Shown here in pieces: positions 5,160 through 56,973 of a stretch of 64,000 bases of DNA. Source of the stretch: an uncultured bacterium (GTDB lineage: Bacteria > Nitrospirota > Thermodesulfovibrionia > Thermodesulfovibrionales > Dissulfurispiraceae). Location: assembly GCA_937949555.1 (NCBI GenBank), contig CALEDV010000023.1:12869-76868 (forward strand), in the 5' to 3' direction. How positions within the stretch are numbered: position 1 is the first letter of the stretch; each line of letters starts with the position of its first letter. The notes beneath the pieces are model-generated. The model searched no databases, was not told the origin of the DNA, and saw only the letters and a program-made list of their open reading frames with translations. The position numbers and the translations under genes were made by a program.

Positions 5160-5273
5160 CTTAGGAAATGCCTATCCATTAAAGGGCTTTATAACTGCAA
5201 GGATATCTCATAGGATATATCTTCACGATGATGCCTGCATTAAAACCTCATCCTCAAACATCTTTAAACATCT

Positions 5274-11589: not shown

Positions 11590-11612
11590 ATAAATCTATA
11601 ATAAAGGAGGAT

Positions 11613-12692
11613 ATGATAATTATGGCAGCACCACAGAGAAAGACAGACATTGGACCGCCTCATTATAAGGAATATCTCCCCCCAGTTATCCAGAAGAATT
11701 TTGGTGACTGGAAATATCATCAGATTATAAATCCTGGATTGATGGTCCATGTAGCCAACAGCGGAGATAAGATTTGGACTGTAAGGGTTGCATCTCCAAG
11801 ACTCCTCAGCACAGATACCATCAGAGATATTGCTGATATTGCTGAAAAATACTGTGGTGGTTATGTGAGATTCACCACAAGAAACAACATTGAGTTCCTT
11901 GTATCAGAGGAGAAGAACATCGAGCCTCTGATAAATGAACTTAAGTCCAAGCATTACATGATCGGTGGAATCGGCTCCGGAGTAAGCAATATCGTTCATA
12001 CACAGGGATGGATCCATTGCCACAGTGCAGCAGTAGATGCTTCTGCCCTTGTGAAGGTTATAATGGATGAATTCGCCGATTATTTCACCACCAAACAGAC
12101 TCCAAACAAGGTTAGATTTGCAGTGGCATGCTGCACCAACATGTGCGGTGCCGTCCATTGCTCAGACATAGCCTATGTGGGTATTCATAGGAAGATACCG
12201 AGGATTGACCATGACAATATAAAGAATATGTGCGAGGTGCCTTCCACTGTAGCATGTTGTCCTACAAATGCAATCAGCCCTGATCCAGCAAAGAAGAGCC
12301 TAAAGATCAACGCTGACAAATGTATGTATTGCGGCAATTGCTATTCTGTCTGCCCAGCCCTTCCCATTGCTGACCCTGAAAATGATGGCGTGGCAATAGT
12401 TGTAGGTGGCAAAGTCGGAAGCCTTAGAAGCAACCCAAAGTTCTCAAAACTGGTTGTTCCTTTCATTAAGAATAATCCCCCAAAATGGCCTGAGGTAGTT
12501 GAGGCTACCAAAAAGATATTCAACGCCTACATGGCAGGTGCTAATAAGCACGAAAGGGTTGGCGAATGGGTTGAGAGGATCGGTTGGGAGAAGTTCTTTA
12601 AGGTAACAGGTCTGCCCTTCACCTTCCAGCACATTGATGACTTTACCATAGCAAGAGAGACCTTTAGGACCGCTGCTACATTTAAGTGGTAG
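11613..12692 (+). CDS. dsrB: Dissimilatory sulfite reductase beta subunit
   Basis: 359 aa. [64 protein letters not shown]...[12 protein letters not shown]. An alternative start at ATG 11622 has better SD spacing. Confidence 0.93.
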
Positions 12693-14460: not shown

Positions 14461-15369
14461 TCAATCCTCAATAGCCCTGTTTATACCTGCCTTGATCAGG
14501 TAATCGAGGGCCTTTGAGTACTCCTCATTGGTGATGGTCCTACCAAGCCTTTCATCACCCCTTGCCTTATAGCAAGGATAATACTGGGCCATAATATTGA
14601 CATAGGTCCTCTTTGATATGTGATTTGCCACAAAGTCCATTGCCGCCTCTGTGCCTGCAAGGTCAGCAGGCAATACCAGATGCCTCAGTAGGATACCCCT
14701 CAGGACCACACCATTGGTGTCTAAAACCAGGTCACCCACCTGACGGTGCATCTCCTTTAAGGCCTCCTTTGCCCGCACAAAATAATCAGGGGCCTCGGCA
14801 CACATGGACGAGACAGAGTCATCGGTAAACTTCAGGTCTGGCATGTAGATGTCAACAATACCATCTAAGAGCCTCAATGCCTCAACGGATTCATAACCGC
14901 CACAGTTATAAACCACCGGCACATTCAATCCACCTTCTATGGCGATGCTTAGGGCCTTTAAGATCATTGGCATCTGGTGTGTTGGGGTAACCAAATTGAT
15001 ATTGTGACACCCTTGCCTTTGCAACTTAAGCATTATCTCTGCAAGGTCTTGCTCAGAGGTCTCATGACCTTCACCCTCGTGGCTTATCTCCCAGTTTTGA
15101 CAGAATATACAGCCCAGATTGCAGTTGCTGAAGAAGATGGTGCCTGAACCATGGCTTCCCCGTATGGGCCTCTCCTCTCCATAGTGAGGTCCCCAACTGG
15201 CAACAAAGGGCCTATGACCTGTCTTGCAATAGCCCCTTTGTCCAGAGAGCCTATCAACGCCACAGTCTCTCGGACAAAGCCTGCATTGGCTCAGCATCTC
15301 ATAGGCCCCATCTACCCTCTGCTGAAGCTCAGAAGGCGTTAGGTTTAGATATGAAGGATACCGTCTCAT
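14461..15369 (-). CDS. Radical SAM protein (PflX / COG1313-like activase family)
   Basis: 302 aa. N-terminal CRLCPRDCGVDR...GYC cluster and CNLGCIFCQNW radical-SAM motif. The stop abuts the start of the downstream MBL gene. Confidence 0.75.
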   Translation of the reverse strand: MRRYPSYLNLTPSELQQRVDGAYEMLSQCRLCPRDCGVDRLSGQRGYCKTGHRPFVASWGPHYGEERPIRGSHGSGTIFFSNCNLGCIFCQNWEISHEGEGHETSEQDLAEIMLKLQRQGCHNINLVTPTHQMPMILKALSIAIEGGLNVPVVYNCGGYESVEALRLLDGIVDIYMPDLKFTDDSVSSMCAEAPDYFVRAKEALKEMHRQVGDLVLDTNGVVLRGILLRHLVLPADLAGTEAAMDFVANHISKRTYVNIMAQYYPCYKARGDERLGRTITNEEYSKALDYLIKAGINRAIED

Positions 15370-28109: not shown

Positions 28110-28439
28110 ATGGATATTAACATTGAAGATGTAGGAAAAGGCAAGAAGGTGTCCCTTTCGGGCGAGATTGATATGCACACATCACCTGAACTTAGGAAGG
28201 CACTGTTAAAACTCACTAAGGAGAAGATATCCCCAATTATCATAGACCTTAAAAACGTAAGCTACATGGACAGTTCAGCAATAGCCACCTTTGTAGAGGC
28301 TCTAAAATCAATGATGTCCTATAAGGGCTCTATGAGGCTTTGCAATCTATCACCTCGGGTGCAGGAGATCTTTGCCTTTGCCAAACTTGATAGGGTCTTT
28401 ACAATCTGCAAAGACATAGAAGATGCCCTATCTCGTTGA
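28110..28439 (+). CDS. STAS-domain protein (RsbV/SpoIIAA-like anti-anti-sigma; candidate MlaB equivalent)
   Basis: 109 aa. IIIDLKNVSYMDSSAIATFVEAL with Ser55 at the canonical phospho-site. Starts 1 nt after the kinase stop. mlaE starts 17 nt before its stop. Confidence 0.8.
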   Translation: MDINIEDVGKGKKVSLSGEIDMHTSPELRKALLKLTKEKISPIIIDLKNVSYMDSSAIATFVEALKSMMSYKGSMRLCNLSPRVQEIFAFAKLDRVFTICKDIEDALSR

Positions 28440-29229
28440 CAGTTTGATCGCACTTATAGGTAAAAAGACTCTCTCTCTGCTTGCTGTTTTAAGGGATGTA
28501 TCAATTCTAATTAACAGTGTATTCTACTGGACCTTTATAGCCCCCTTTACTACCGGCAAATTAAGAATTAAGTCAACGGTATCAGAAATGGTTAAGGTGG
28601 GCTATAATTCTATACCTATTGTTGCAGTAATTTCTTTCTTTGTGGGAATTATATTAGCTCTTCAGTCTGCCTATCAGCTTAAAAAGGTTGGAGCATTAAT
28701 ATATATAGCAAATCTTGTGGGTGTGTCTCTTACAAGGGAATTAGGACCTATTTTAACTGCCATTATAGTTGCAGGTAGAAGTGGTTCTGCCTTTGCAGCA
28801 GAGATAGGTTCTATGAAGGCTGCTGAGGAAGTAGATGCCCTGAAGAGCATGGGAATTAATCCAGTGAGCTTTCTGGTTTCTCCAAAGATGCTGGCAATGC
28901 TTATTATGGTGCCCTGTTTAACGGTAATCTCAGATTTTGTTGGTATCCTTGGTGGTTTTGTACTCTCTGTAACAGTGGTCAATATACACCCACAGAGTTA
29001 TATTCAGCAGACCATCAATGCACTGATGGTAAAGGATGTGATCACAGGATTAGTTAAAGCCGTTGCCTTTGGAGGAATTATTACTATTGTTGGCGCTTAT
29101 CAGGGCTTTCAGGTCAGTGGTGGCGCAGAAGAGGTAGGTATGAGAACTACTGCATCGGTAGTATCATCAATCTTCATGGTAATACTGTTTGATCTGTTCT
29201 TTACGGTACTGTTTTATTACTTTACCTAA
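28423..29229 (+). CDS. mlaE: MlaE-family ABC permease
   Basis: 268 aa. SIPIV....FVG.ILALQ, LTRELGPILTAIIVAGRSGSAFAAEIGSMK..EE.DAL..MGI.P (MlaE/Ttg2B signature). Confidence 0.88.
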   Translation: MPYLVDSLIALIGKKTLSLLAVLRDVSILINSVFYWTFIAPFTTGKLRIKSTVSEMVKVGYNSIPIVAVISFFVGIILALQSAYQLKKVGALIYIANLVGVSLTRELGPILTAIIVAGRSGSAFAAEIGSMKAAEEVDALKSMGINPVSFLVSPKMLAMLIMVPCLTVISDFVGILGGFVLSVTVVNIHPQSYIQQTINALMVKDVITGLVKAVAFGGIITIVGAYQGFQVSGGAEEVGMRTTASVVSSIFMVILFDLFFTVLFYYFT

Positions 29230-29231
29230 AT

Positions 29232-30023
29232 ATGCAAAACGAAAGCGCTATTACTATAAAAAATCTTATTACAAGATATGGTGATAAATTAATCTTAAAG
29301 GACCTCTCCTTTGAGATACCAAGGTCAAAGATAACTGCTATTGTTGGGGGAAGCGGATGCGGTAAAAGCACCCTACTTAAGCATATTATAGGTCTTCTAA
29401 AGCCAGCCTCTGGCAGTATATTAGTTGGCGGCAGAGATATAGTTGCAATGAATGAAAGGGAGTTGAATGAATTTAGAAGGCGCATAGGCGTGCTTTTTCA
29501 AGGATCAGCGCTGTTAAATTCTATGACTATAGAGGACAATGTGGCGCTACCTATCAGGGAACATGCAAGATTGAATGAGGCAACCATTAAAATAATGGTG
29601 AAGATGAAGCTTGACCTTGTTGGACTCTCAGGCTTTGATGATTTCTTCCCAGCTCAACTTTCTGGAGGCATGAAAAAAAGGGCTGGCATTGCAAGGGCAA
29701 TGGCGCTCGATCCCGAGATGCTTTTTTTTGACGAGCCACAGGCAGGGCTTGATCCTATTACAGCCGCTGGCTTAGACGAACTGATAATGAAGTTAAGAGA
29801 TATTTTTAAAATGACCCTTGTAGTAGTCACCCATGAACTGCACAGCCTTTTTACTATAGCGGATCATATAATAATGCTTGATAAGGGTGAATTGATCTTT
29901 ACGGGCACAGTAGAACAATTTAAGTTCTCTGAACATCCTAAGATAAAGAGGTTTATTTCAAGACAGGTTGAAGAAGATAAATACTGTCCAGAGGATTATT
30001 TTAATATAATAACTGCAGATTAA
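29232..30023 (+). CDS. mlaF: MlaF-family ABC ATP-binding protein
   Basis: 263 aa. GGSGCGKST Walker A, LSGGMKKRAGIARA signature, LFFDEP Walker B, VTHEL. Confidence 0.88.
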   Translation: MQNESAITIKNLITRYGDKLILKDLSFEIPRSKITAIVGGSGCGKSTLLKHIIGLLKPASGSILVGGRDIVAMNERELNEFRRRIGVLFQGSALLNSMTIEDNVALPIREHARLNEATIKIMVKMKLDLVGLSGFDDFFPAQLSGGMKKRAGIARAMALDPEMLFFDEPQAGLDPITAAGLDELIMKLRDIFKMTLVVVTHELHSLFTIADHIIMLDKGELIFTGTVEQFKFSEHPKIKRFISRQVEEDKYCPEDYFNIITAD

Positions 30024-30039
30024 CTTAGGAGACAAAGGC

Positions 30040-30942
30040 ATGAGAGAAGAGATTAAGGCGGGTTTGATTGTTATTGGGGCAATGGCTATACTAATAATCT
30101 CTGTTATTGCTATTGGAGGCAGTAAGTTATTTGATAGCTTTGATGTCTATTACACAAAGCTCTTCAATGTGACAGGTCTTGAATCGGGTTCACAGGTGAA
30201 ACTCGGGGGCATGACCGTTGGCAGAGTTCTTTCAATAAGTCCGCCAGCAAAGGAGAATGACCCTATTCTTATTGAGATCGGATTAAAAAAAGGCACGCCT
30301 TTATATGAGGGCATAACTGCTTCAATTAGCCAGGTTGGTTTTGTGGGAGACATTTTTCTTCAGCTATCCCTGAGCAATAAGATGGGTAAACCAATAAAGA
30401 CAGGAGAAACTATTCCCTCTGTGGAACAGTCCAATTTTAACACTATAATGGCAAAGGCAGAGGCATTAACCCTATCTTTGAAGAAGTTGGTAGAGGATGT
30501 TGACAAGGTATTTAATGATGACAATATCAATAATGTATCGGAGATTATTAAAAACACAAATAAACTTGTAGTGAGCACCGACAACAGGCTTGATAAGTTG
30601 ATAGCCTCACTCAAGTCTCTATCTGAAAAACTTTCAGTTACCATATCAAAGGCGGAACTTATTATGGATGATAATAGAGACAACCTCAAACAGGTAATCC
30701 TAAAGGCAAAGGACGATATGGTTGCCCTTGAGGGACTTATACAATCCCTTGAATCGTCCTCTGAAAATCTTGGTAATATGCTAATAAAGGCTGAACACCT
30801 AATAGATACTCAAAATGACAATCTCGATCAGCTTTTTAGGAAAGTGATAAAGACTACTGAGACACTAAACGATGCAATAAGTAATCTCAATCAGCGTCCC
30901 TGGAGGATAATATACCGGGAACGTTCTCAAAGGGAGGAGTAA
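30040..30942 (+). CDS. mlaD: MlaD/MCE-domain protein with extended coiled-coil C-terminus
   Basis: 300 aa. N-terminal TM, MCE core F.NV.GLE.GS.VKLGGM.VGRV, long helical tail. Confidence 0.8.
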   Translation: MREEIKAGLIVIGAMAILIISVIAIGGSKLFDSFDVYYTKLFNVTGLESGSQVKLGGMTVGRVLSISPPAKENDPILIEIGLKKGTPLYEGITASISQVGFVGDIFLQLSLSNKMGKPIKTGETIPSVEQSNFNTIMAKAEALTLSLKKLVEDVDKVFNDDNINNVSEIIKNTNKLVVSTDNRLDKLIASLKSLSEKLSVTISKAELIMDDNRDNLKQVILKAKDDMVALEGLIQSLESSSENLGNMLIKAEHLIDTQNDNLDQLFRKVIKTTETLNDAISNLNQRPWRIIYRERSQREE

Positions 30943-30945
30943 GAT

Positions 30946-31548
30946 ATGAATAGGGTCTTGATTTGTAAAATAGTGTTCTTTTTTATATTGTGCTCCTCTT
31001 GCTCAACCACTGAGACAAAGATATATAGTCTTTATTTAAATGACCTTAAGGAATACAAAAACACGCAAAAGGTAGATGCAGTTGCCTTCATACATATAAA
31101 GGCACATAAGTATTTGGAACAACCCTACATAGTTTTTAAGACTTCACCCTATGAACTCACCCCTTCATCCTACGCCAAATGGGATACATACCCATCGGAG
31201 ATTATAAAAGAACAGATATTGGAGTATCTCTCAAAAAGGGGTCCTTTCAAAGAGGTCAAAACTACCCGTCCTGTAATAACTGGCAACTCTTACTTGATAT
31301 CTATAAATCTTAAGGACCTATCCAGGTATGATACAGGCTCTTTAAGCTACGGAATACTTGCCTTGTCTGTATCCCTCAAGGATAGTGCAGGCAAAGAGAT
31401 ATACCATAAGGAATTTAATCAAAGGGAACCTCTTCAAGACAGAAGCTATCTGAGTCTTGCTAAGGGTATCAGCGCTGCCTTAAATGTTGTATTGATTGAA
31501 ATGACTGAGGGAATTAACAGTGCGATGAGAGGTCAGGCAGCAAAATAA
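30946..31548 (+). CDS. ABC-transport auxiliary lipoprotein (PqiC/YmbA-like, PF03886-type)
   Basis: 200 aa. Signal peptide with Cys (FFFILCSSCS), KIYSLYL start of the mature domain as in the family. Last gene of the Mla-like operon. Confidence 0.6.
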   Translation: MNRVLICKIVFFFILCSSCSTTETKIYSLYLNDLKEYKNTQKVDAVAFIHIKAHKYLEQPYIVFKTSPYELTPSSYAKWDTYPSEIIKEQILEYLSKRGPFKEVKTTRPVITGNSYLISINLKDLSRYDTGSLSYGILALSVSLKDSAGKEIYHKEFNQREPLQDRSYLSLAKGISAALNVVLIEMTEGINSAMRGQAAK

Positions 31549-31799
31549 AATTACCACAATAGAGCCAATTGCAACCCTCGTAGTTTGTTGATGAAAGCAG
31601 ATAGGTGGCACCTATATGCTTTCTTATTGATATTTCCTCGGGTTCGATCCATTATGTCCCCTATTGAATAGGAGCCCCTAATAATAGGGCATTTCAATGT
31701 CGTATCTTCTTGTATATATCCAATCACCAAGGGATTACAAGTATAACCTGAAGATTCAGCCAACAACATTGACAAAACAATATTGAAAGAATAACAATA

Positions 31800-32062
31800 T
31801 CGGACTTTAAGTCGTGAACGGAAGTCAGGGAAGAGGAGTGAGGTCCTAAGGGCCAATGCTCCCGCTGCCCCGCAGCCGTGATGGGAACGAAAGACCGTGC
31901 TAAAGAGTCAAGAGTCTTCAGTCAGGAGACTTGAGGCCTTTAGTAAGCCACTGTCATGTGTAATATCATGATGGGAAGGTGGTCAAGTAGGAATGCTTGC
32001 CTTAGTGTATAACCCATTGAGGTAAGTAGATGCCCTAAGCCGGAAGACCTATCTGCTTCATG
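31800..32062 (+). promoter_or_regulatory. Cobalamin (B12) riboswitch
   Basis: Conserved blocks in canonical order: GGGAAGAGGAGTGAGGTCC (31828-31846), CCGCTGCCCCGCAGCCGTGA (31862-31881), GCCACTGT (31947-31954), GGGAAGGTGG (31973-31982), B12 box AGCCGGAAGACCT (32038-32050). Upstream of a TonB-dependent receptor. Confidence 0.85.
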
Positions 32063-32457
32063 TTTGCGTCAAACTTCTGGGGAGAAGATGATGCTTACAA
32101 TTGATGTATGCCATAGTTTTTTAGCCATTTTCTATCAAATTGCCTATCTAAGGTCAAAGGCCTTTGCTTTGCCTCCAGAGTATTCAATATCTTGTCATTA
32201 CTGCAAAGGCATGAATCTAAGAGTCAACAGGACAATTATCCATCTTTTTTTGATTCTTGATTTTTATTTCTTTTTACGCCAGGCCTTTGTAATGGTTGTT
32301 TCTAATAACAGTCCTATCCTTACAAAAAACATCCCTGTCACATACAAGGAGGTGATGCAGTAGCCCTGTTATTTATGAGCGTTACGAACGCTTGTATTTC
32401 AAGAGGATCTCGAATCCCGATGGTTTTTTGAAAAATCAAGATATCGGGAGGGTAGTG

Positions 32458-34395
32458 ATGAGGTATTTTATACAAAGTGTTAGGGTTTTGATTGTTGTGT
32501 GGTCTTTGCTATCTTCAACTTATGTTTTTGCACAGGAGGCGGAACTCCGGGAGATAGTTGTGACTGCCTCAAAGACTGAAGAGGACATAAAAGATGTACC
32601 AGCCTCAGTTGAGGTGATTACCCGTCAGCAATTAGAGGCAAGGGGTGCTATAAAGTTAAACGACATCTTAAGGTTGGCAACAGGTGTGTATCAATACACA
32701 GGTCTTACGAGAGACAACTCTGCAGTAAGTATAAGGGGCTTTGACAATAAACAGAGCCTTATACTCATTGACGGCAGGAGACTCTCTGGTGAGCCTACCG
32801 GTGTGTTTGAGATAGATAGGATTACCGTTGAGGATATTGAACGGATTGAGATCGTCAGAGGTCCTGTGAGCGCCCTTTATGGTAGTGATGCCCTTGGAGG
32901 TGTTATAAATATCATCACTCGTACTTCGGAAAAACCCTTTTTTCAGTTTCACCCACAGTTTGGCACCTATAGGGGTGATGGCAATAGGACCACTATCTCT
33001 GGCATTGCTGGCAGTGGTGATTTAGGCAGGTTCAATGTGATCCTATCTGGGCTATATCAGAGGCAAAAGCCCTTAATAGTCAACAACGACACCACCCTTG
33101 ATGATGGAGACCTAAAGAGGGTATCTATGAAGACTCATTACTCCTTCAGCAAGTCAACAAAGTTGATGTTTGACGGCTCTTACACAAAAGAGTTAGTCAG
33201 GCTTCAGACAGAAACCATGGGGCAGATAAACAGCAGTAGATATGACAATTACAGATATGACCTTTCTTTAGCCCTTGACCATAGGAGTGATTTGGTTGAC
33301 CTCTTTGTAAGGGGCTATACCTCTGTGTACAACAAAGACTATGAGCAGAGGAACAAAAAGACCGGGGCCCTCACAGACTTCTATCCCGCAGAGCGTAAGA
33401 CCCCTACAGTAGAGATCAGGGCTACGAAGGAGTTGTTAAAGGGGCATGTTACCACCTTAGGTGCAGAATACAGGAGCGATTACTACCGTGGTGCGAAGGT
33501 CACTACAGGTGAGGGCACCTACAGCGAGACAAGAGAAGGCTTAACGAGGTCAGGCTCTGAAAAGACCATTGGTTATTGGGCAGTATACCTTCAGGATGAG
33601 TGGATAATTGACAACTCTCTGATCTTAGTGCCTGCCCTTAGATACGACGACAGCGATAAGTTCAGTAGTAATATATCACCGAGGTTAGGCGTCACCTACA
33701 AGGTTTATCCAAACCTTCGTTTAAAAGCAAATATCGGGCAGGCCTTTAGGAGTCCAAATGTAGAAGAACTCTATCAGTTCTTTACTACAAGGATGGCAAG
33801 GTTTTGGAACTCTGTAAGAGGCAATCCAAATCTCAAACCTGAAAAGTCCACAAGCTACGAGCTCGCCCTTGAGGCAGAGACAGGTAAATTCAGAGGAAGG
33901 ACGGCATTGTTTTACAACGATGTAAAGGACCTTATAAAAAATGTCCTCACTGGGGGTAAGGGCACAGCTACGGACCCACAGGTATTTGTATCACAAAACA
34001 TCAGCAAGGCAAGGATTCAGGGTTTTGAGATAGAATCAGGTGTAGAGATTACTAAGGGATTAGACCTTAGGGCATCATACACCTACCTTGATGCAAAGAG
34101 TAAGACCGATGACAAACCACTAACCTTAAGACCCAAACACAAACTCGTTGCACAGGGTAGCTACCAATACAAACCCTGGGATGTAAGGTTAGACCTTTGG
34201 ACTGAGTATATAGCTGATTATGTAATGAGTGACTATGAAGAAAAAAGCTACAACACCTGGCACTTTAATATCTCAAAGGATATCAATAAAAACTTCAACC
34301 TATGTGTTGGCATAGACAATATCTTCAATAAAAAAGACAGTGAGATCCCCTTAAATGGCGTATTTTATTATGCTGGCCTAAGGGCAAGATTTTAG
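32458..34395 (+). CDS. TonB-dependent outer-membrane receptor (BtuB-like by riboswitch context)
   Basis: Start set at MRYFIQS (GGGAGG RBS). Signal peptide, TonB box EIVVTASK, plug motifs IEIVRGP.SALYGS.A.GGVINIIT, C-terminal ...GLRARF. Confidence 0.88.
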   Translation: MRYFIQSVRVLIVVWSLLSSTYVFAQEAELREIVVTASKTEEDIKDVPASVEVITRQQLEARGAIKLNDILRLATGVYQYTGLTRDNSAVSIRGFDNKQSLILIDGRRLSGEPTGVFEIDRITVEDIERIEIVRGPVSALYGSDALGGVINIITRTSEKPFFQFHPQFGTYRGDGNRTTISGIAGSGDLGRFNVILSGLYQRQKPLIVNNDTTLDDGDLKRVSMKTHYSFSKSTKLMFDGSYTKELVRLQTETMGQINSSRYDNYRYDLSLALDHRSDLVDLFVRGYTSVYNKDYEQRNKKTGALTDFYPAERKTPTVEIRATKELLKGHVTTLGAEYRSDYYRGAKVTTGEGTYSETREGLTRSGSEKTIGYWAVYLQDEWIIDNSLILVPALRYDDSDKFSSNISPRLGVTYKVYPNLRLKANIGQAFRSPNVEELYQFFTTRMARFWNSVRGNPNLKPEKSTSYELALEAETGKFRGRTALFYNDVKDLIKNVLTGGKGTATDPQVFVSQNISKARIQGFEIESGVEITKGLDLRASYTYLDAKSKTDDKPLTLRPKHKLVAQGSYQYKPWDVRLDLWTEYIADYVMSDYEEKSYNTWHFNISKDINKNFNLCVGIDNIFNKKDSEIPLNGVFYYAGLRARF

Positions 34396-34407
34396 AGGAT
34401 CAAAACA

Positions 34408-35820
34408 ATGGATATAACTAATACTACTGTAGTCAAGGCAGATAGATTCAAGGCAATGCAAGAGGGTATGTCTTTAAAGGACATACCCCTTGAGTGGCTC
34501 TATGGCAATGTAACCAATGATCCCCTCAGATTTGGCTTTTACAGTAAGAGGGTAGTTCATCCAACCATAAAGAGTCCTCTCATAAAAGATAAGGCCCTGC
34601 AAAACAGATGGTCTCAGTTTATGACAATGGAGGATAATGAGGGCTCGAGGGTTGCATATATACACATACCCTTTTGCATCAGTCGTTGCCATTACTGCGG
34701 GTTTTTTCAGCATTTTGTGGATCGAGGGCTCGAGGATGCCTTCATAGACAGCCTCATCAAAGAGCTCAGGATGGCAGAGGACGCGAGATTTATCCAGTGC
34801 CGACCCTTTAATGCAGTCTATATAGGGGGAGGTACTCCGTCAGCGCTTAAGACAGACAGCCTCAGGGGGCTTTTAAATGCTATAAGGAATTCGATACCTA
34901 TGAAGGAAAACTGTGAATTCACCATGGAAGGGTCCTTACAGACCTTTACTGAGGAGACCTTTGAACTGTGTAGGGATTCAGGGATAAATCGTCTTTCCTT
35001 TGGGGTACAGTCTTTCAATACCTCTGTAAGGAGGCTTGTGGGCAGGATGCTCAGTGGTCAGGAGGTGCATGATCGCCTTAATAGGCTTGTTGAGAAGGCT
35101 GACAGCATGGAGATGCTTATTGTTATTGACCTCATCTTTGGCCTGCCCCTTCAGCACATGCCTGTGTGGGAGGAGGATATAGATACATACATCGCCTCAA
35201 AGATACACAGTGCAGACTTCTACCAGCTCAATGTGTTTTCAGATAGCAGGCTGAAGGAGTTTACTGATAAGGGGCTATTGCCATCACAGGCAGGGCTGCC
35301 TGAGCAGGCAATGATGTTTGCAAAGGCCGTTGATATTATGGAAAGGAAAGGACAGCTTAGACTGAGCAACATCCACTGGGCAAGAACTCATGGGGAGAGA
35401 AACCTCTACAACAGCCTTTCAAAGGCTGGTTCAACGATCATACCCTTTGGTCCTGGTGCAGGAGGTAGGGTGATGGGTTCAACGACATTTATAACAAAAG
35501 ACATTGACCGATACATCAAAGAGATTGATGAGGGTGTTAAACCTCTGATGTTTATGACAGAGCCCATCAAAGACTATCAAGTGTATTATCAATTAATTGG
35601 TCAGTTAGATAGGGGCTTCATAGACCTAAGGGCATTACAATCTCATTATCCACAATACTACAGTTTAGCAATGGAGTTGATACAAAAGTGGCAGAGTAGA
35701 GGATTTGTCTTTGTGTCTGATGCAATAGCAAATCTGACCTTGGCAGGTCAGTTCTGGTATGTAAATCTAACCCAGGCACTTATTGATTGGTTGCAACTAA
35801 AGACAGGAGGTATGATGTGA
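34408..35820 (+). CDS. HemN-family radical SAM enzyme with HutW/ChuW-like N-terminal extension
   Basis: 470 aa. About 75 aa precede AYIHIPFCISRCHYCGFF (CxxxCxxC). AVYIGGGTPS, RLSFGVQSF. Confidence 0.7.
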   Translation: MDITNTTVVKADRFKAMQEGMSLKDIPLEWLYGNVTNDPLRFGFYSKRVVHPTIKSPLIKDKALQNRWSQFMTMEDNEGSRVAYIHIPFCISRCHYCGFFQHFVDRGLEDAFIDSLIKELRMAEDARFIQCRPFNAVYIGGGTPSALKTDSLRGLLNAIRNSIPMKENCEFTMEGSLQTFTEETFELCRDSGINRLSFGVQSFNTSVRRLVGRMLSGQEVHDRLNRLVEKADSMEMLIVIDLIFGLPLQHMPVWEEDIDTYIASKIHSADFYQLNVFSDSRLKEFTDKGLLPSQAGLPEQAMMFAKAVDIMERKGQLRLSNIHWARTHGERNLYNSLSKAGSTIIPFGPGAGGRVMGSTTFITKDIDRYIKEIDEGVKPLMFMTEPIKDYQVYYQLIGQLDRGFIDLRALQSHYPQYYSLAMELIQKWQSRGFVFVSDAIANLTLAGQFWYVNLTQALIDWLQLKTGGMM

Positions 35821-36722
35821 TAGGAGTAATAGTTGTTCTTATATGTATTTTGCCCTGGCTATCAGCCAATGCAGAGGTATACATAGATGACCTTAATACA
35901 AAGGTAGAGATCAATTCCAAACCCCAAAGGGTAGTAGCACTCAATGCCTCAAACCTTGAGATGCTCTTGGCATTCAGGGCAAATATTGTAGGAAGACCTG
36001 AAAAGACAGGCATGACAGAGGGCCTCTATGAGAGGGTAAAGGGGATAGATGATATTGGACATACTGCTAATCCCTCTTTAGAGAAGATCGTATCTTTAAG
36101 GCCTGACTTAGTTGTTGGTAATGCAGTGAGCTTTCATCAGGCCTTGGTGCCATCACTTAAAGAGGCAGGCATAAAGACCCTTCTCGTCTCAATCAAAGAT
36201 TACGACGATATATTCAGCAAGATAAGATTGTTTGGTAGGGTTTTCAGGGATGAAAGGACTGCTGAGGAGATCATCAAAGGCATAAAACAAGAAACCGCTG
36301 AAGTGAAGGCCTTAACAAAGGGCAAAGGGGACAAAAGGGTCTTGGTAATATGGGGGTCGCCTCAGAGTTTTTCAATGGCAACGGCCCAGAGCTTTGTAGG
36401 TTCATTGCTAAAGGAGCTAAAGATTGCTAACATTTCAGCGGGCCTTAAGATGCCTACCAATAGTCCGTACATACCCTTGAACCTTGAATACGCCCTATCT
36501 AAAGATCCCGATGCTATTTTCATAATAACAATGGGCAATCCCGAGACTATGAGGCAGAAGGCAATCAGGGAGCTTGAGAAAAGCGGTGCCTGGTCTGCCT
36601 TTAGGGCAGTGAGGGAAAATAGGGTCTATTATCTACCCTATGAACTCTTTACGGTCAATCCCTCCTTGAGGGTTGCCGATGCAATGAGGCACCTTGTGAT
36701 TACACTTTACGAAGGGCAATGA
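35817..36722 (+). CDS. Periplasmic substrate-binding protein of a FecB/BtuF-type (cluster A) ABC importer
   Basis: Signal peptide IGVIVVLICILPWLSANA, PQRVVALN.SNLEMLLA, LRPDLVV. A GTG start at 35817 gives a GTGA overlap with the upstream stop. The ORF track starts at 35787. Confidence 0.8.
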   Translation: MIGVIVVLICILPWLSANAEVYIDDLNTKVEINSKPQRVVALNASNLEMLLAFRANIVGRPEKTGMTEGLYERVKGIDDIGHTANPSLEKIVSLRPDLVVGNAVSFHQALVPSLKEAGIKTLLVSIKDYDDIFSKIRLFGRVFRDERTAEEIIKGIKQETAEVKALTKGKGDKRVLVIWGSPQSFSMATAQSFVGSLLKELKIANISAGLKMPTNSPYIPLNLEYALSKDPDAIFIITMGNPETMRQKAIRELEKSGAWSAFRAVRENRVYYLPYELFTVNPSLRVADAMRHLVITLYEGQ

Positions 36723-36877
36723 AAGAGATAAGATGCAAGAAGTGTAAGAGGCTGTTGATGAAGGGGGATGTAAAGAGGATTGAGATAAAGTGCCCGAAGT
36801 GTGGTTATGTTCAATTAATTGAAGGAGAGAGGTCTTTGAAGGTCGAAGATAAACAAACATCAAAGGAGGCGTCATGA
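36719..36877 (+). CDS. Com-like zinc-ribbon small protein (52 aa), not in the ORF track
   Basis: Own translation: MKEIRCKKCKRLLMKGDVKRIEIKCPKCGYVQLIEGERSLKVEDKQTSKEAS. ATGA overlaps at both ends (36719-36722 and 36874-36877). The pattern M-K-x-I-R-C-K-x-C-x-x-L-L...IEI-x-CP-x-C resembles phage Mu Com. Confidence 0.6.
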   Translation: MKEIRCKKCKRLLMKGDVKRIEIKCPKCGYVQLIEGERSLKVEDKQTSKEAS

Positions 36878-37410
36878 AGGTATTGATCCTCTGTGCATCA
36901 AGATATGGCTCCACAGAGCAGATAGGCCGATGGATGAAGGAGCGATTTATCTATGAAAGTTATGAGGTTTATATGATTAAACCTTTTGACGAGGTAAATC
37001 TGGCAAACTACGATCTTATTGTTTTAGGTTCTGGTATCTATAGCCATAGACCTCTACCTGAATTGAGTAGTTTTATCGAGAAGAATTTAGCCACCCTTAG
37101 AACTAAAAGGGTTGCCCTATTTGGTGTGCTTATGAAGACCAGTCCTGTTTTTTACAAGGGTAAGATCCATGGCGGATTAGGGCACCTTAAAGACACCATT
37201 GATCTCCTTGGAGAGTCAGTTATACATGCAGACATGCTTCACGGTGAGATGGTTCCTTCAAAGCTCACAAAGGAAGACCTCGATGCTGTGATGAGATTTT
37301 ATAAGATGCTCAATCTGCCAGAAAGGGAGCTTAAAGAACGATTAAGGCCTAGGACCCTTATGGACAAAAAAGAGGTCTGGGAGTTTGTTGAAAAGGTCAT
37401 TGCAAAATAA
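36874..37410 (+). CDS. Flavodoxin-like protein (HemG/Flavodoxin_5 type)
   Basis: 178 aa. MKVLILCASRYGSTEQI, DLIVLGSGIY. Confidence 0.7.
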   Translation: MKVLILCASRYGSTEQIGRWMKERFIYESYEVYMIKPFDEVNLANYDLIVLGSGIYSHRPLPELSSFIEKNLATLRTKRVALFGVLMKTSPVFYKGKIHGGLGHLKDTIDLLGESVIHADMLHGEMVPSKLTKEDLDAVMRFYKMLNLPERELKERLRPRTLMDKKEVWEFVEKVIAK

Positions 37411-38392
37411 GAGACTTGTCTTAGTCTTTGTGGGATTTTTTCTTTTAATCTCAGGCGTTGTGTGTAGTCTAAAGATCGGCAGCGTAAATGTAAATATCCA
37501 TGAGATCTTCATACTGCTCTTTCATCCTGAAGATGCAGCGACCTATCATATTGTCTTTAACATCAGGCTCCCAAGGATCTTAATAGGTGCTTTGGTGGGA
37601 ATGAACCTCGCAGTTTCTGGTGCAATCCTTCAAGGGGTGTTGCGTAACCCGATAGCTGAACCATCTATAATAGGCATCTCATCAGGGGCAGGGTTATTCG
37701 CAATCATTGTGATGATACTCGTTCCAGAACAGACTATCTATGTGCCTCTGGTTTCTTTTATTGGTGCAATGCTTGCAGCAACGATGGTCTATGGCATTGC
37801 CTATAGAAGCAAGTTATCGCCTATGGCACTGATACTGTCAGGTGTTGCCATGGCTTCCTTTTTGGGTGCCTTCATGACTACACTGATGGTCTTTCATAGC
37901 GACAAGGTTCAGGGTGTGATTAATTGGTTAGCAGGTGGTTTCCCTGCAAGGAGTTGGATGCACCTTAAGACAATACTACCTTATAGCCTCTTTGGTCTTA
38001 CAATGGCATTTCTTTTAGGTAGGTATGTAAACATCCTGCTTTTAGGTGATGATATCTCAAAGAGCTTAGGACTGAGGTTAGAGTTGACAAGGCTTACACT
38101 TATCGCCCTCTCAGCCCTGCTTGCTGCCTCTGCAGTGTGTGTATCTGGACTGATTGGTTTTGTAGGGCTGATTGTACCACATATGGTCAGGCTTGTGATT
38201 GGCTCAAATTATAGTTATCTCCTGCCCTTTTCAGCGCTCTTTGCCTCGTCCTTTGTTATATGGACAGACCTTGCTGCAAGGACGATCTTTTATCCTGTGG
38301 AATTACCAGTAGGTATTTTCATGGCATTCATGGGCGCACCATTTTTTCTTTTCTTACTTAGAAAAAATCTAAAGGTCTACAGGGCTTCATAA
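37385..38392 (+). CDS. FecCD/BtuC-family ABC permease
   Basis: 335 aa. RLPRIL.GALVGM.LA.SGA.LQG..RNP.AEPSI.G.SSGA, GL.GFVGLIVPH..R. Confidence 0.88.
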   Translation: MLKRSLQNKRLVLVFVGFFLLISGVVCSLKIGSVNVNIHEIFILLFHPEDAATYHIVFNIRLPRILIGALVGMNLAVSGAILQGVLRNPIAEPSIIGISSGAGLFAIIVMILVPEQTIYVPLVSFIGAMLAATMVYGIAYRSKLSPMALILSGVAMASFLGAFMTTLMVFHSDKVQGVINWLAGGFPARSWMHLKTILPYSLFGLTMAFLLGRYVNILLLGDDISKSLGLRLELTRLTLIALSALLAASAVCVSGLIGFVGLIVPHMVRLVIGSNYSYLLPFSALFASSFVIWTDLAARTIFYPVELPVGIFMAFMGAPFFLFLLRKNLKVYRAS

Positions 38393-39174
38393 TGGATAGA
38401 GGATTGATGCTCAAAGGGGTAAGCTTTGGTTACACTGAGGCAGAGGTATTGAAAGATTTATCTCTGACTTTTAAAGACAGTGGCATTGTATCAATAATTG
38501 GTCCAAACGGTTCAGGCAAGTCCACTATACTAAGGCTAATAGCGAGGTTATTGAGGCCAGAGAAGGGTTATGTGCTTTTAGACGGTAAAAATATCCTGAG
38601 TTTGCCCACAAAGGCTGTAGCCAAGAGATTAGCTATTCTCACACAGAACCTTAAATGTCCAGAGGATATAAGGGTAAAGGATTTAGTCAGCTATGGCAGG
38701 ACACCCTATAGCAGTATTTTTGGTAGCAGCGCAGAAGAGGACAGAAGGGTTATAAACTGGGCAATAGAGGTTTGTGGTCTAAAAGACCTCAGTGAAAGGC
38801 CTGTGGTTAGCCTATCAGGAGGGGAGAGACAGAGGGCATGGATTGCGATGGTATTGGCGCAGAGGACGGACCTTCTCCTGTTGGATGAACCTATAACATA
38901 CCTTGACATACACCATCAAATTGAGATGATGGAGCTTGTAAGAAGACTAAATGTGGACTATGGGGTAAGGATCCTGATGGTCTTACATGACATAAATTTA
39001 GCGATAAGATTTAGTCAGAGGCTGATAGCAGTCAAAGATGGACAGATAGTTGGTCAAGACTGTCCAAAGACCCTGATCACTGAAGATTTTCTGTTAAAGG
39101 TATTTAACATCAAAGCAGAGATAATGACAAAGGCTGGACTTCCTTATATCATACCTTGGGGGATCGTTACTTGA
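38392..39174 (+). CDS. ABC ATP-binding protein (BtuD/FepC type)
   Basis: 260 aa. GPNGSGKST, LSGGERQRAWIAMVLAQ, LLLDEP, VLHD. TAATG overlap with the permease gene. Confidence 0.88.
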   Translation: MDRGLMLKGVSFGYTEAEVLKDLSLTFKDSGIVSIIGPNGSGKSTILRLIARLLRPEKGYVLLDGKNILSLPTKAVAKRLAILTQNLKCPEDIRVKDLVSYGRTPYSSIFGSSAEEDRRVINWAIEVCGLKDLSERPVVSLSGGERQRAWIAMVLAQRTDLLLLDEPITYLDIHHQIEMMELVRRLNVDYGVRILMVLHDINLAIRFSQRLIAVKDGQIVGQDCPKTLITEDFLLKVFNIKAEIMTKAGLPYIIPWGIVT

Positions 39175-39473
39175 CAGATATTTTAAGATATCAATCCTTT
39201 CTTAACATAGGCTGTGAGTTTTATCCCTGCCATGAGATAGCCAATTTTCACAATTGTATGTTTTGCTGGTGTCCACTTTATCTGCTTGACTGTAAAGGCA
39301 ATTACTTAATGATCAATGGCATAAAAGACTGCTCTCACTGTGTGTTGCCCCATATTGAGGGTGGGTATGAATATGTGCTCAAGGCGGTAAAAGAGCAGGT
39401 GTTCAGTCATAAAAGACAGAGAAGTGGCAGCAGGCGTAAACCGTTAGTTGATCAGTTAAGACTTTTTCTTTAA
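39156..39473 (+). CDS. Cysteine-rich small-domain protein (PF04071-like)
   Basis: CEFYPCHEIANFHNCMFCWCPLYLLDCKG...IKDCSHCVLPH. Non-ATG (TTG) start, 19-nt overlap with the ATPase gene. Start uncertain. Confidence 0.6.
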   Translation: MGDRYLTDILRYQSFLNIGCEFYPCHEIANFHNCMFCWCPLYLLDCKGNYLMINGIKDCSHCVLPHIEGGYEYVLKAVKEQVFSHKRQRSGSRRKPLVDQLRLFL

Positions 39474-45109: not shown

Positions 45110-45685
45110 ATGAAGTCGTTGAAGGGAACAAAGACAGAAAAAAATATCCTAACCGCCTTCGCAGGGGAATCTCAGGCAAGAAACAGATACACCTATTTTG
45201 CCAAACAGGCAAAGAAGGAAGGATATGAGCAGATAGCCTTTATATTTGAGGAGACGGCTAATCAGGAAAAGGAACATGCCAAAAGGCTCTTTAAGCAGCT
45301 TGAAGGTGGAGAGGTGGAGATATGCGCTGCCTTCCCTGCTGGGGTTATTGGGACCACTGTAGAGAACCTCAAAGAGGCTGCTGCAGGGGAAAACTATGAG
45401 CAGACCACTATGTATCCAGGATTTGCGAAGATAGCGAGGGAGGAAGGCTTTGAGGCTATTGCCCTTATCTTTGAAGCTATTGCTGTAGCTGAGAGGCAAC
45501 ATGAAAAGAGGTATCGTGCCCTTATGTCCAATATTGAAAAGGGTATCGTATTTAAGAGAGACCAGAAGACAACCTGGCGTTGCCGTAATTGTGGATATAT
45601 GCATGAAGGCTTGAGCGCTCCTGAAAAGTGTCCTGCCTGTGATCATCCTCAGGCACACTTTGAGATTAACGGAGAGAATTGGTAA
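45110..45685 (+). CDS. rbr: Rubrerythrin
   Basis: 191 aa. Di-iron ExxH motifs (EKEHAKR, ERQHEKR) and a C-terminal rubredoxin-like CRNCG...CPAC. Confidence 0.92.
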
Positions 45686-53046: not shown

Positions 53047-54306
53047 CTACTTGTTCATCATATCAAGAAAATCTTGATTGCTCTTTGAACCCTTAAGTTT
53101 ACTCAGCAGAAATTCCATGCTCTCTACAGTGCTTAGGGGATTTAATACCTTTCTTAATATCCACATCTTATTAAGCACATCAGCAGGCACAAGTAGTTCC
53201 TCTTTACGGGTGCCCGAGGCATTGATATCAATAGTTGGGAATATCCTCTTATCCACGAGCTTCCTATCAAGATGGAGTTCCATATTGCCTGTGCCTTTGA
53301 ATTCTTCAAAGATCACATCGTCCATTCTGCTGCCTGTATCCACAAGGGCTGTGGCTATAATAGTAAGGCTTCCGCCTTCCTCTATATTTCTTGCAGTGCC
53401 AAAAAATCTTTTGGGCTTCTGAAGGGCATTGGCTTCAAGGCCTCCTGAGAGCACCTTTCCGCTTGTGGGAGATATAGCATTATATGCCCTTGCAAGTCTT
53501 GTGATGCTGTCCAGGAGTATAACCGCATCCCTGCCAGCCTCTACTAGCCTCTTTGCCCGTTCAATAACCATCTCAGAGACCTGACAATGCCTCTGTGGAG
53601 GTTCATCAAAGGTAGAGCTTATTATCTCTGCAGTGCTGACTTGCCTCTTCCAGTCAGTAACCTCCTCGGGTCTCTCGTCTATCAACAGTATTATTAAATC
53701 TATCTCCTTATGGTTTGCCTTTATTGCCTTTGCAATAGATTGAAGGAGCATGGTTTTGCCTGTCCTTGGCGCTGCAACAATAAGCCCCCTTTGACCTCTG
53801 CCTATGGGGGCAATCAAGTCCATGACCCGCATGGAATAATCGGAGTCGTACTCAAGGTTGATCTTTTGGGTTGGGTAATAGGGTGTAAGATTGTCAAAAA
53901 GGGACCTGCTTGTATTTGCCTCAGGCGTAGAACCATTGATGGTTTCAACCTTAAGGAGCGCAAAGTATCGTTCATTCTCCTTTGGTGGCCTTATATGCCC
54001 TGATATGTAATCACCTGTGCGTAAGGAAAATCTTCTTATTTGGGACGGCGACACATATATGTCATCCGGTGAAGGCAGGTAGCTGTAATCTAAAGATCTG
54101 AGAAAACCAAACCCATCAGGCAAAATCTCAAGCACCCCAGAGCCGTAGACATTGCCTATCTTCTCTGCCTGCCCCTGCAGTATGCTGAATATGATGTCCT
54201 GCTTCCTCATCCCCCCTGCGCCTTCTACATTGAGTTCCTTTGCAAGGACCGTTAAATCATCAATTGACATGGATTTCAATTCTGATATTGAAATATAATT
54301 ATCCAT
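53047..54306 (-). CDS. rho: Transcription termination factor Rho
   Basis: [17 protein letters not shown]-terminus, RNA-binding [21 protein letters not shown]-like Walker A ([15 protein letters not shown]), ALVDTGS. Start set at MDNYIS (AGAGGT SD). Confidence 0.93.
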
Positions 54307-54496
54307 AGGCTTGTTACCTCTTTCTGTGGGCATGTTATAAATTTTTAAGACAGTGAATTCACAAACTATTCTGGATTGGTTATTTAGTTTTTTTTTAAAT
54401 CCCTTTGTCCCTAAACGGTTTTGGAGGGAGTAAATTGATTCTGATAGATAAGATACAAAAAGATTTTAACTTTGTCAATAGCCAGCTTTAAGAGAT

Positions 54497-56807: not shown

Positions 56808-56880
56808 GGGCGGATAGCTCAGTTGGGAGAGCACAGCCCTTACAAGGCTGGGGTCACAGGTTCAAGCCCTGTTCCGCCTA
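56808..56880 (+). tRNA. tRNA-Val (anticodon TAC)
   Basis: Manual cloverleaf: acceptor GGGCGGA/TCCGCCT, D arm GCTC-AGTTGGGA-GAGC, anticodon arm CAGCC-CTTACAA-GGCTG, T arm ACAGG-TTCAAGC-CCTGT, discriminator A. No encoded CCA. Confidence 0.9.
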
Positions 56881-56899: not shown

Positions 56900-56973
56900 G
56901 GGGTGGTAGTTCAGCCGGTTAGAACGCTTGCCTGTCACGCAAGAGGCCGCGGGTTCGAGCCCCGTCCGCCCCG
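56900..56973 (+). tRNA. tRNA-Asp (anticodon GTC)
   Basis: Manual cloverleaf: acceptor GGGGTGG/CCGCCCC, D arm GTTC-AGCCGGTTA-GAAC, anticodon arm CTTGC-CTGTCAC-GCAAG, T arm GCGGG-TTCGAGC-CCCGT, discriminator G. Confidence 0.9.

Follow-up and report, generated by a model that had tools for sequence, protein, structure and literature searches.

Among the systems closest to the locus described here are the operons built around the radical S-adenosylmethionine (SAM) enzymes ChuW, HutW and HmuW, i.e., the chu operon of E. coli O157:H7, hutWXZ of V. cholerae and the hmu operon of F. nucleatum with its HmuF protein, in which the enzyme is accompanied by a TonB receptor, a binding-protein-dependent ATP-binding cassette (ABC) importer and a protein of the flavodoxin superfamily. 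HmuF, which is flavodoxin-like, hands haem over to HmuW and acts as reductase on the product (PMC10404700). The substrates of ChuW and HutW extend to metal-free porphyrins, and the chemistry is thus not dependent on iron (PMC10114718). We report here an operon with the same core that lies behind a cobalamin riboswitch in a stretch of 64,000 nucleotides (nt) from an uncultured bacterium of the Dissulfurispiraceae (contig CALEDV010000023.1). This whole 64 kb stretch is called the window, and W designates its copy in the comparisons of loci.

Compared with the ChuW/HutW/HmuW operons, that of the window has in addition the cobalamin riboswitch, a gene for a cysteine-rich small protein of the PF04071 family and a gene for a Com-like zinc ribbon, whereas it has no ChuX/HutX, HutZ/ChuZ-like or ChuY genes. 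Its binding protein lacks the axial His, and nine family-conserved residues of its enzyme are changed. Clusters present in metagenome-assembled genomes (MAGs) of Thermodesulfovibrionales- and Dissulfurispiraceae-like bacteria, which we call Type B, contain homologues of seven of the eight window genes, including the flavodoxin-HutW pair and the zinc ribbon, but in a different order, without riboswitch and PF04071 gene, and together with ExbBD-TonB and PNPOx.

Three other systems share features with the window through B12. The BtuBFCD importers have the same regulatory logic (a riboswitch of the Rfam family RF00174 before a TonB receptor) and the same transporter architecture, whereas the operon of the window includes an enzyme module. 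In Bacteroidetes, hmu-like operons located behind cobalamin riboswitches have been proposed to act on cobalamin and not on haem (PMC10100974). Like the window's operon, they are a second version of a haem-acquisition operon behind such a riboswitch, but they contain HmuS, a CobN-like dechelatase, instead of a radical SAM enzyme, and the phylum and the transporter parts differ. Finally, the cbiMNQO-PF04071 operons (loci L095-L097) have a member of the same PF04071 subfamily as last and overlapping gene of a B12-repressed uptake operon, although what they import is free ionic cobalt (or nickel), through a transporter of the energy-coupling factor (ECF) type, and they encode no tetrapyrrole-processing enzyme. 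In the literature that we searched, no ChuW/HutW-type enzyme encoded behind a cobalamin riboswitch was described, in agreement with an earlier, sequence-only reading of the window, for which a ring-modifying radical SAM enzyme under B12 control was not known to be described.

A Riboswitch-Linked Variant of the HutW Clusters

The operon of the window belongs to a variant of the HutW clusters, hereafter Type A, that is linked to a B12 riboswitch, lacks the haem accessory genes, carries substitutions at ligand sites and includes a protein of the B12 regulon. It is present in three lineages (the window, L001/L091 and L002), each with RF00174 upstream and with the order riboswitch, receptor, radical SAM enzyme, binding protein, zinc ribbon, flavodoxin, permease and ATPase. 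Because the same riboswitch and gene order recur in L001/L091 and L002, the arrangement seen in the window is not a chance juxtaposition. These three lineages were the only ones recovered in two word-indexed searches of a 5.8-billion-protein database. Among 1.84 billion cluster representatives searched exhaustively with HMMER, only one (P0002, whose cluster has six members, from NCBI, JGI, ENA and Logan) was closer than the Type B representative, and the next-closest receptor (P0124) belongs to a Type B cluster. When genome contigs were scanned with a profile of the radical SAM enzyme, most of the genes recovered were of the HemW type, and none of the approximately 19 HutW-like loci was of Type A.

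Type B clusters were found in five lineages (L003, L004/5, L006/7, L088 and L178), labelled Thermodesulfovibrionales, Dissulfurispiraceae and WOR. Their order is ExbB-ExbD-TonB, (zinc ribbon), receptor, PNPOx/HutZ-like protein, flavodoxin, radical SAM enzyme, (ChuX/HutX), binding protein, permease and ATPase. L004 adjoins FeoAB and Fur, and L178 adjoins a FeoB-associated gene. The presence of ExbBD-TonB, of the HutZ-like PNPOx protein and, in three of the five lineages, of ChuX/HutX, together with these Feo/Fur neighbours, thus identifies Type B as a haem/iron system. No homologues of ChuX, PNPOx, ExbBD or TonB were detected in the 64 kb window or in L001, L002 and L091. Conversely, RF00174 was absent from 13 other HutW loci, namely the Type B loci L003, L004, L006 and L088 and nine control loci from named genomes, which include Veillonellaceae, Acidaminococcus, Ferrimonas and Rhodopseudomonas. 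A scan with the Fur-box consensus, which is uninformative for these phyla, gave nothing in either type. We also looked for a genome containing both types of cluster; the Type B locus L178 comes from the same assembly series as L001/L002 but from a different MAG.

Part by part, PF04071 excepted, Type A and Type B are 43-66% identical. The values between types are 45-46% for the receptor, the binding protein and the enzyme, and 53-55% for the ATPase, the permease and the flavodoxin. The receptors are 69-80% identical within Type A and 45% identical to those of the Type B haem clusters, while the radical SAM enzymes of the Type A lineages share about 47-63% identity, that of the window being about 64% identical to the enzyme of L001/L091 and 47% to that of L002. 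Compared with the BtuB/F-like system controlled by a riboswitch in L095, the receptor and the binding protein reach an identity of only 25-30%. BtuBFCD-type importers had been cited in the sequence-only reading as the classic cargo of B12 riboswitches; the transporter of the window is not of this type, in view of this low identity and of the NCBIfam models, since no part reaches the Btu cutoffs (BtuB 219.5 versus 599.7, BtuF 42.4 versus 234, BtuC 261 versus 461 and BtuD 116.5 versus 281). The receptor also scores under the cutoff of the TonB-hemin model TIGR01785 (230 versus 316.85). The identity of 43-66% to Type B, as opposed to 25-30% to the BtuB/F-like system, thus identifies Type A as a derivative of the haem-utilisation cluster and not of a B12 importer.

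Substitutions in the Binding Protein and in the Radical SAM Enzyme

The binding protein most resembles the haem binders IsdE and Lmo2184 (E ~1e-18, versus 1e-7 for BtuF); its score with the IsdE model TIGR03659 is under the cutoff (163 versus 298.65). The position equivalent to His229, which is a haem ligand in IsdE, is occupied by Met in all three Type A lineages and by His in all five Type B lineages. In the binding protein of the window, Met and Ala occupy the positions that correspond to His229 and Met78 of IsdE, respectively.

The radical SAM protein matches the HutW/ChuW equivalog model TIGR04107 over positions 2-419 of 419, with 445.8 bits for a cutoff of 400. It remains under the cutoffs of the other NCBIfam models, HemW (165.6 versus 205.4), HemN (111.6 versus 325) and HemZ, so that the profile assignment proposed earlier as a check places it with HutW and not with the housekeeping HemW/HemN proteins. 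The motif AYIHIPFCISRCHYCGFF covers residues 83-100. The cysteines of CxxxCxxC (C90, C94 and C97), the GGGTP motif (G140-P144) and E174, which aligns with the position of HemN that we take to be the SAM-binding E145, are invariant in an 18-sequence alignment of the HutW family, and every invariant column of this alignment is kept in the window enzyme. At nine positions that are at least 85% conserved in 113 other members of the family, all three Type A enzymes have a substitution: A43G, G56S/R, N167E/D, R176S, K184T, G268S, C322I/T, R364K/S and L433F. R176S is located two residues past E174, K184T removes a second basic residue, and C322I/T adjoins an invariant His-Trp pair. The only solved relatives of the protein are HemN (1OLT) and NocN.

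Many proteins of the HutW family end in a conserved tail, ...(I/V)A(A/G)QG, which is absent from the three Type A enzymes. We considered the missing C-terminal tail as a signature of Type A, but dropped it because several Type B proteins are also devoid of it. In the tree, the Type A enzymes have P0118 as their apparent sister, which is encoded in an unrelated gene context.

The PF04071 Protein and Its Relatives

The protein encoded by the last gene of the operon has the conserved residues C20, C25, H26, C34, C37, C39, C46, C59, C62 and H66 of the PF04071 family. In L001/L091, a 65% identical orthologue that gene callers had missed is located 9 nt past the ATPase gene. The PF04071 gene is present in two of the three Type A lineages, the contig of the third ending before this position, and none was found in the Type B loci.

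Proteins of this type had been described, in the sequence-only reading, as belonging mostly to corrinoid-biosynthesis contexts, and our results support this for the close subfamily. Using Rfam, we detected RF00174 directly upstream of the PF04071 gene in 19 of 20 loci (59-78 bits), some of them with cbiMNQO. Among 80 metagenome loci scanned with an nhmmer profile of six aptamers, a match was found directly upstream of PF04071 in 37 of the 42 closest ones, and four of the five remaining loci have little or no upstream DNA. In L092-94, the riboswitch (79 bits) is followed by PF04071 and two YeeE-like transporters, and in L095-97 (122 bits) by cbiM-N-Q-O and then by PF04071 as last, overlapping gene, while PF04071 precedes cbiM in L122. 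The genes located 3' of PF04071 vary (major facilitator superfamily transporter, Pyr_redox_2, zinc-dependent alcohol dehydrogenase, CbiM or MOSC). As these close relatives are themselves under direct control of cobalamin riboswitches, the last gene of the operon is tied to the cobalt/B12 regulon.

The window-like PF04071 genes (L092-L097, L100-L141 and L150) sit 30-60 nt behind the cobalamin riboswitch and are often alone. L095 has two cobalamin riboswitches (4984-5169 and 8331-8544), the second of which precedes a BtuB/F-like unit composed of a TonB receptor, an ABC importer and TonB. A NikR gene is located just downstream, which makes the cargo ambiguous between cobalt and nickel. In L150, a match to the c-di-GMP-I riboswitch (426-542; 35.9 bits for a gathering threshold of 35) was observed approximately 5 kb upstream of the unit formed by the cobalamin riboswitch and PF04071. 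In L155 (6004-7443), PF04071 is fused to the N-terminus of a class-III aminotransferase, beside an ornithine carbamoyltransferase, indicating that the domain family is not restricted to B12 contexts. No solved structure was found for relatives of PF04071, an AlphaFold2 (AF2) model of the protein based on a 20-sequence alignment was poor (predicted local distance difference test, pLDDT, 48), and our literature search on the family gave nothing relevant.

Operon Layout and Leader RNA

The operon consists of eight co-directional and mostly overlapping genes behind a true cobalamin aptamer (Table 1), which supports the earlier proposal of a single translationally coupled unit. Every feature on which this proposal was built is present, from the riboswitch and the TonB receptor to the radical SAM enzyme, the binding protein, the zinc ribbon, the flavodoxin, the FecCD permease, the ATPase and PF04071. 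The overlap junctions read from the sequence were all recovered, i.e., GTGA (35817-35820), ATGA (36719-36722), ATGA (36874-36877) and TAATG (38390-38394), with small corrections of start sites. ATG 32458 is a likelier start for the receptor than TTG 32392, and the PF04071 gene probably starts at TTG 39171, producing a TTGA overlap with the stop of the ATPase gene. There is an overlap of 26 nt between the flavodoxin and permease genes, and 12 nt separate the receptor gene from the radical SAM gene.

Table 1. Coordinates in the window of the leader elements, the operon genes and the Rho gene.
Feature	Position	Strand	Remarks
Promoter-like site, TTGACA / 18 nt spacer / AACAAT	31769..31798	+	10/12 consensus positions
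Cobalamin riboswitch aptamer RF00174, three inserted hairpins	31796..32070	+	36.2 bits vs gathering 31.5; model 1-189/189
P13-like regulatory hairpin, GGGG loop	32066..32094	+	-14.7 kcal/mol, z = -4.07; 0/200 shuffles fold as well
Leader open reading frame (uORF), 90 codons, peptide not conserved	32091..32363	+	Opens at conserved AUG
Shine-Dalgarno-like element AAGGAGGTGAT at uORF end	32347..32357	+	10/11 positions identical across window, L001 and L002
Hairpin UCCCGAUG / UAUCGGGA sequestering the receptor Shine-Dalgarno sequence (32446-32452)	32415..32449	+	In the minimum-free-energy fold of 3/3 leaders
TonB-dependent outer-membrane receptor	32458..34395	+	Plug + barrel domains (Pfam)
HutW/ChuW-family class C radical SAM methyltransferase	34408..35820	+	TIGR04107
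Periplasmic binding protein, IsdE-like	35817..36722	+	PF01497; GTG start overlaps radical SAM stop
Com-like zinc ribbon, 52 aa	36719..36877	+	PF10122 Zn_ribbon_Com, 41.8 bits vs 22.9
Flavodoxin_5 protein	36874..37410	+	PF12724
FecCD-family ABC permease	37385..38392	+	PF01032, 315 bits
ABC transporter ATPase	38392..39174	+	PF00005; best NCBIfam match FecE-like, under cutoff
PF04071 cysteine-rich small protein	39171..39473	+	70.5 bits vs gathering 27; reading frame also readable from TTG 39156
Rho transcription termination factor gene	53047-54333	-	Relevant to the proposed leader-ORF polarity

We aligned the leaders of the three lineages (window, L001 and L002). The -35 hexamer TTGACA is invariant in this alignment, as are the aptamer core, the P6 extension, the B12 box AAGCCGGAAGACC and GCCACUG. 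The orthologous aptamers obtained 45.9 bits (L002) and 33.2 bits (L001/L091). The core of the window aptamer is near-identical to those of aptamers scoring 69-79 bits, and its conserved elements are common to aptamers of 69-122 bits; the low RF00174 score is explained by the three hairpins inserted in the aptamer.

Approximately 390 nt separate the aptamer from the receptor start, and this interval contains a leader open reading frame (ORF) and conserved hairpins. The sequence of the P13-like hairpin is conserved in all three Type A lineages. It holds a Shine-Dalgarno (SD) sequence, GGGGAG, and the AUG of the leader ORF (32091), and its GGGG loop is complementary to the CCC(C) loop of P5, with the little covariation that three lineages can provide. 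The layout of the leader at this hairpin matches that of leaders in which the PF04071 gene starts at this exact position. The leader ORF has 50 codons in L001 (2900-3052) and 74 in L002 (5041-5265), and the lengths observed in the three leaders were reached in 0.004, 0.058 and 0.012 of dinucleotide shuffles (product ~3e-6). Its stop falls at or beside the AAGGAGGTGAT element in all three lineages, the version of L002 being AAGGGGGTGAT, whereas the surrounding spacer is otherwise unconserved. The hairpin sequestering the receptor SD competes with a small upstream hairpin, GGAU-loop-AUCC, in which L002 exhibits a compensatory change from U:A to G:C. The riboswitch thus appears to gate the translation of a leader ORF whose peptide is not conserved, and this ORF has the appearance of an expression platform coupled to translation or to Rho. 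On these grounds, a link from the aptamer to the structural genes is plausible, the uORF/Rho mechanism being what we infer from the arrangement.

The Flavodoxin and the Zinc Ribbon

The flavodoxin has a C-terminal extension of approximately 90 residues, predicted to be helical, with a conserved His118. It is 51-66% identical to the flavodoxin encoded directly 5' of HutW in the Type B clusters. Its alignment to FldH (PDB 8G64) covers residues 1-86 only, with a profile E-value of 7e-4, and ordinary flavodoxins score the same. Sequence and profile searches thus align only the common flavodoxin core and do not establish homology to HmuF/FldH. The single-sequence AF2 model was poor (pLDDT 59). The flavodoxin had been viewed as the usual reductant of the radical SAM cluster; rather than a reductant alone, it is possibly a tetrapyrrole-handling partner like HmuF (PMC10404700).

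Com-like zinc ribbons of 52-69 aa with two CxxC pairs are found in HutW clusters of both types, including the Type B loci L003, L088 and L178. Four orthologues share the conserved motifs CKKC and CPKC. The protein could be an RNA-binding regulator like Com of Mu, or a small redox or metal-binding protein.

Other Features of the Window

The upstream boundary of the operon is set by an Mla-like lipid-transport operon (MlaE permease, ABC ATPase, MlaD and auxiliary lipoprotein; 28423-31548, + strand), which ends approximately 250 nt 5' of the riboswitch. Two adjacent NIR_SIR-domain proteins of 394 and 359 aa (10405-12692, + strand) are DsrAB-like, and a rubrerythrin gene lies at 45110-45685; the DsrAB-like pair and the rubrerythrin point to a sulfite-/sulfate-reducing or sulfur-disproportionating anaerobe. 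The window also encodes a second radical SAM protein (14461-15369, - strand), a 1263-aa protein with a C-terminal protein-O-mannosyltransferase-like (PMT) domain (1368-5159, - strand) and two adjacent tRNAs (56808-56880 and 56900-56973, + strand; 68.0 and 68.7 bits).

Discussion

The comparison of the two types of cluster suggests a haem-utilisation module that has been re-purposed, under repression by B12, for the uptake and processing of corrinoids or other cobalt tetrapyrroles, possibly in order to salvage cobalt. We favour this reading tentatively and would give it somewhat less than an even chance. Corrinoids or other cobalt tetrapyrroles, and not haem, would be its most likely cargo. The sequence-only reading had proposed that the operon does more than import. 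This stands insofar as the operon derives from a cluster for the import and degradation of haem and has changes at the would-be ligand contacts, whereas the substrate, the ring opening and the salvage of cobalt remain suppositions drawn from these changes and from the regulatory context.

In the mechanism that we propose, plentiful adenosylcobalamin would lead the aptamer to stabilise a kissing contact between the CCC(C) loop and the GGGG loop of the P13-like hairpin, which would then bury the ribosome-binding site and the AUG of the 90-codon leader ORF. The untranslated leader RNA would remain naked, with the ribosome-binding site of the receptor locked in its hairpin, and the operon would be off; Rho-dependent termination on the untranslated leader may also follow. 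Under B12 scarcity, translation of the leader ORF would allow the expression of the eight coupled genes. The TonB receptor, the binding protein, the permease and the ATPase would import the tetrapyrrole, and the HutW-like radical SAM methyltransferase would process it in the cytoplasm with its flavodoxin-like partner. By analogy with the release of iron by ChuW, HutW and HmuW, the most likely outcome would be a reductive methylation and ring opening that frees cobalt. The freed metal would be taken up by the PF04071 protein, which elsewhere accompanies the CbiMNQO cobalt importer. In its most specific form, which we call cobalt piracy and consider unlikely as a whole, foreign corrinoids would be imported when B12 is low and cleaved by radical SAM methylation, their cobalt passing to PF04071 for de novo synthesis of B12, and the enzyme would be the first anaerobic opener of a corrin or cobalt-tetrapyrrole ring. 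To our knowledge, the way in which corrinoids are broken down has not been established, nor whether bacteria recycle their cobalt, and our literature search found no enzyme for the opening of the corrin ring.

Several observations weigh against re-purposing for cobalt tetrapyrroles. We know of no characterised substrates of the HutW/ChuW family other than haem and porphyrins, and the radical SAM protein passes the equivalog cutoff of this family. Corrins have one meso bridge less and carry methyls at C5 and C15, so that the same chemistry may not apply. Since haem iron can have Met as a ligand, the change from His to Met in the binding protein does not exclude haem. The flavodoxin is as close to its Type B counterparts (up to 66% identity) as to those of the other Type A lineages (61-63%), which argues for an unchanged function of this partner. 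Among the parts of Type A, conservation is lowest for the radical SAM enzyme (52% identity, versus 73% for the receptor). More distant PF04071 proteins are found in unrelated contexts, Type A is limited to three lineages, all from uncultured organisms, and no cbi or cob genes were seen in the 64 kb window. The destruction of corrinoids when B12 is scarce also seems wasteful unless the organism makes B12.

The operon could still be a haem system, converting haem into anaerobilin and iron as Type B does and merely placed under B12 control, which we regard as rather unlikely. All its parts are homologous to those of the Type B haem clusters, the binding protein is nearest to IsdE and Lmo2184, the flavodoxin is almost unchanged, the enzyme scores above the TIGR04107 cutoff and it keeps all the family-invariant residues. 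A possible reason for B12 control would be that, in sulfite-reducing anaerobes, the syntheses of haem and B12 compete for common precursors (uroporphyrinogen III and sirohydrochlorin); DsrAB-like sulfite reductase proteins are encoded in the window, and sulfite reductases of the DsrAB type use sirohaem. However, the degradation of haem would be of no help against a shortage of haem precursors. Moreover, the Feo/Fur neighbours of some Type B loci and ExbBD-TonB are missing, with a B12 switch in their place, the haem-handling partners ChuX and HutZ-like protein have been lost, the His that corresponds to the haem ligand is substituted in each of the three lineages, basic residues conserved near the active site are gone and a B12-regulon protein, PF04071, has been added. 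Alternatively, the operon could be an importer of corrinoids (cobamides or cobinamide) that are used intact, in which the radical SAM enzyme and the flavodoxin would serve as chaperone or reductase, as HemW does for haem, or in the removal or replacement of the upper ligand. Riboswitch control is typical of B12 uptake genes, and the use of an intact corrinoid makes physiological sense when B12 is scarce. Enterobacterial flavodoxin is known to reduce cob(II)alamin for adenosylation, and a role of this kind would fit a non-destructive system. The HemN-like proteins include a non-catalytic haem chaperone, HemW (PMC10114718). Yet the window enzyme scores as HutW and not as HemW and has kept the full set of catalytic motifs that characterises class C methyltransferases, genes for adenosyltransferase, CbiZ or CobT/S/U are absent nearby, and the link between PF04071 and CbiMNQO points to a free metal and not to an intact cofactor. 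We consider non-destructive import to be unlikely.

The low conservation of the Type A enzyme could reflect adaptation or relaxed constraint, as both would fit. If constraint is relaxed, the radical SAM, zinc-ribbon and flavodoxin genes could be decaying passengers in a haem transporter recruited for B12 uptake, in line with the enzyme being the fastest-evolving part of Type A and with the reversed order of conservation of enzyme and receptor in Type B. Nevertheless, these ORFs are intact and full length in three lineages, all the family-invariant residues are retained and the start/stop overlaps that couple translation are preserved, which makes this explanation improbable. Finally, the low Rfam scores of the three aptamers (33-46 bits) and a gene association that is atypical of cobalamin riboswitches might suggest an RNA of the cobalamin fold that senses another ligand, e.g., haem or a linear tetrapyrrole. 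The inserted hairpins account for these scores, however, and the RNA is near-identical in its binding core, B12 box and P6 extension to the 69-79-bit aptamers preceding PF04071 and BtuB-like genes, so that a change of ligand appears very improbable.

Type A can be viewed as a natural experiment, in which a full module for haem import and ring opening has been moved from a haem/iron context into the B12 regulon, with changes in the parts that would contact the ligand and the addition of a partner linked to cobalt. The proteins concerned form a small set that can be tested: the binding protein, the enzyme, the flavodoxin and PF04071. Two wider leads emerge, a PF04071 family encoded directly behind cobalamin riboswitches and a riboswitch seemingly acting through the translation of a leader ORF. 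If haem is still the substrate, the operon would represent a cross-regulation of haem catabolism by B12. If cobalt piracy is true, it would do for cobalt what the recovery of iron from haem does for iron.

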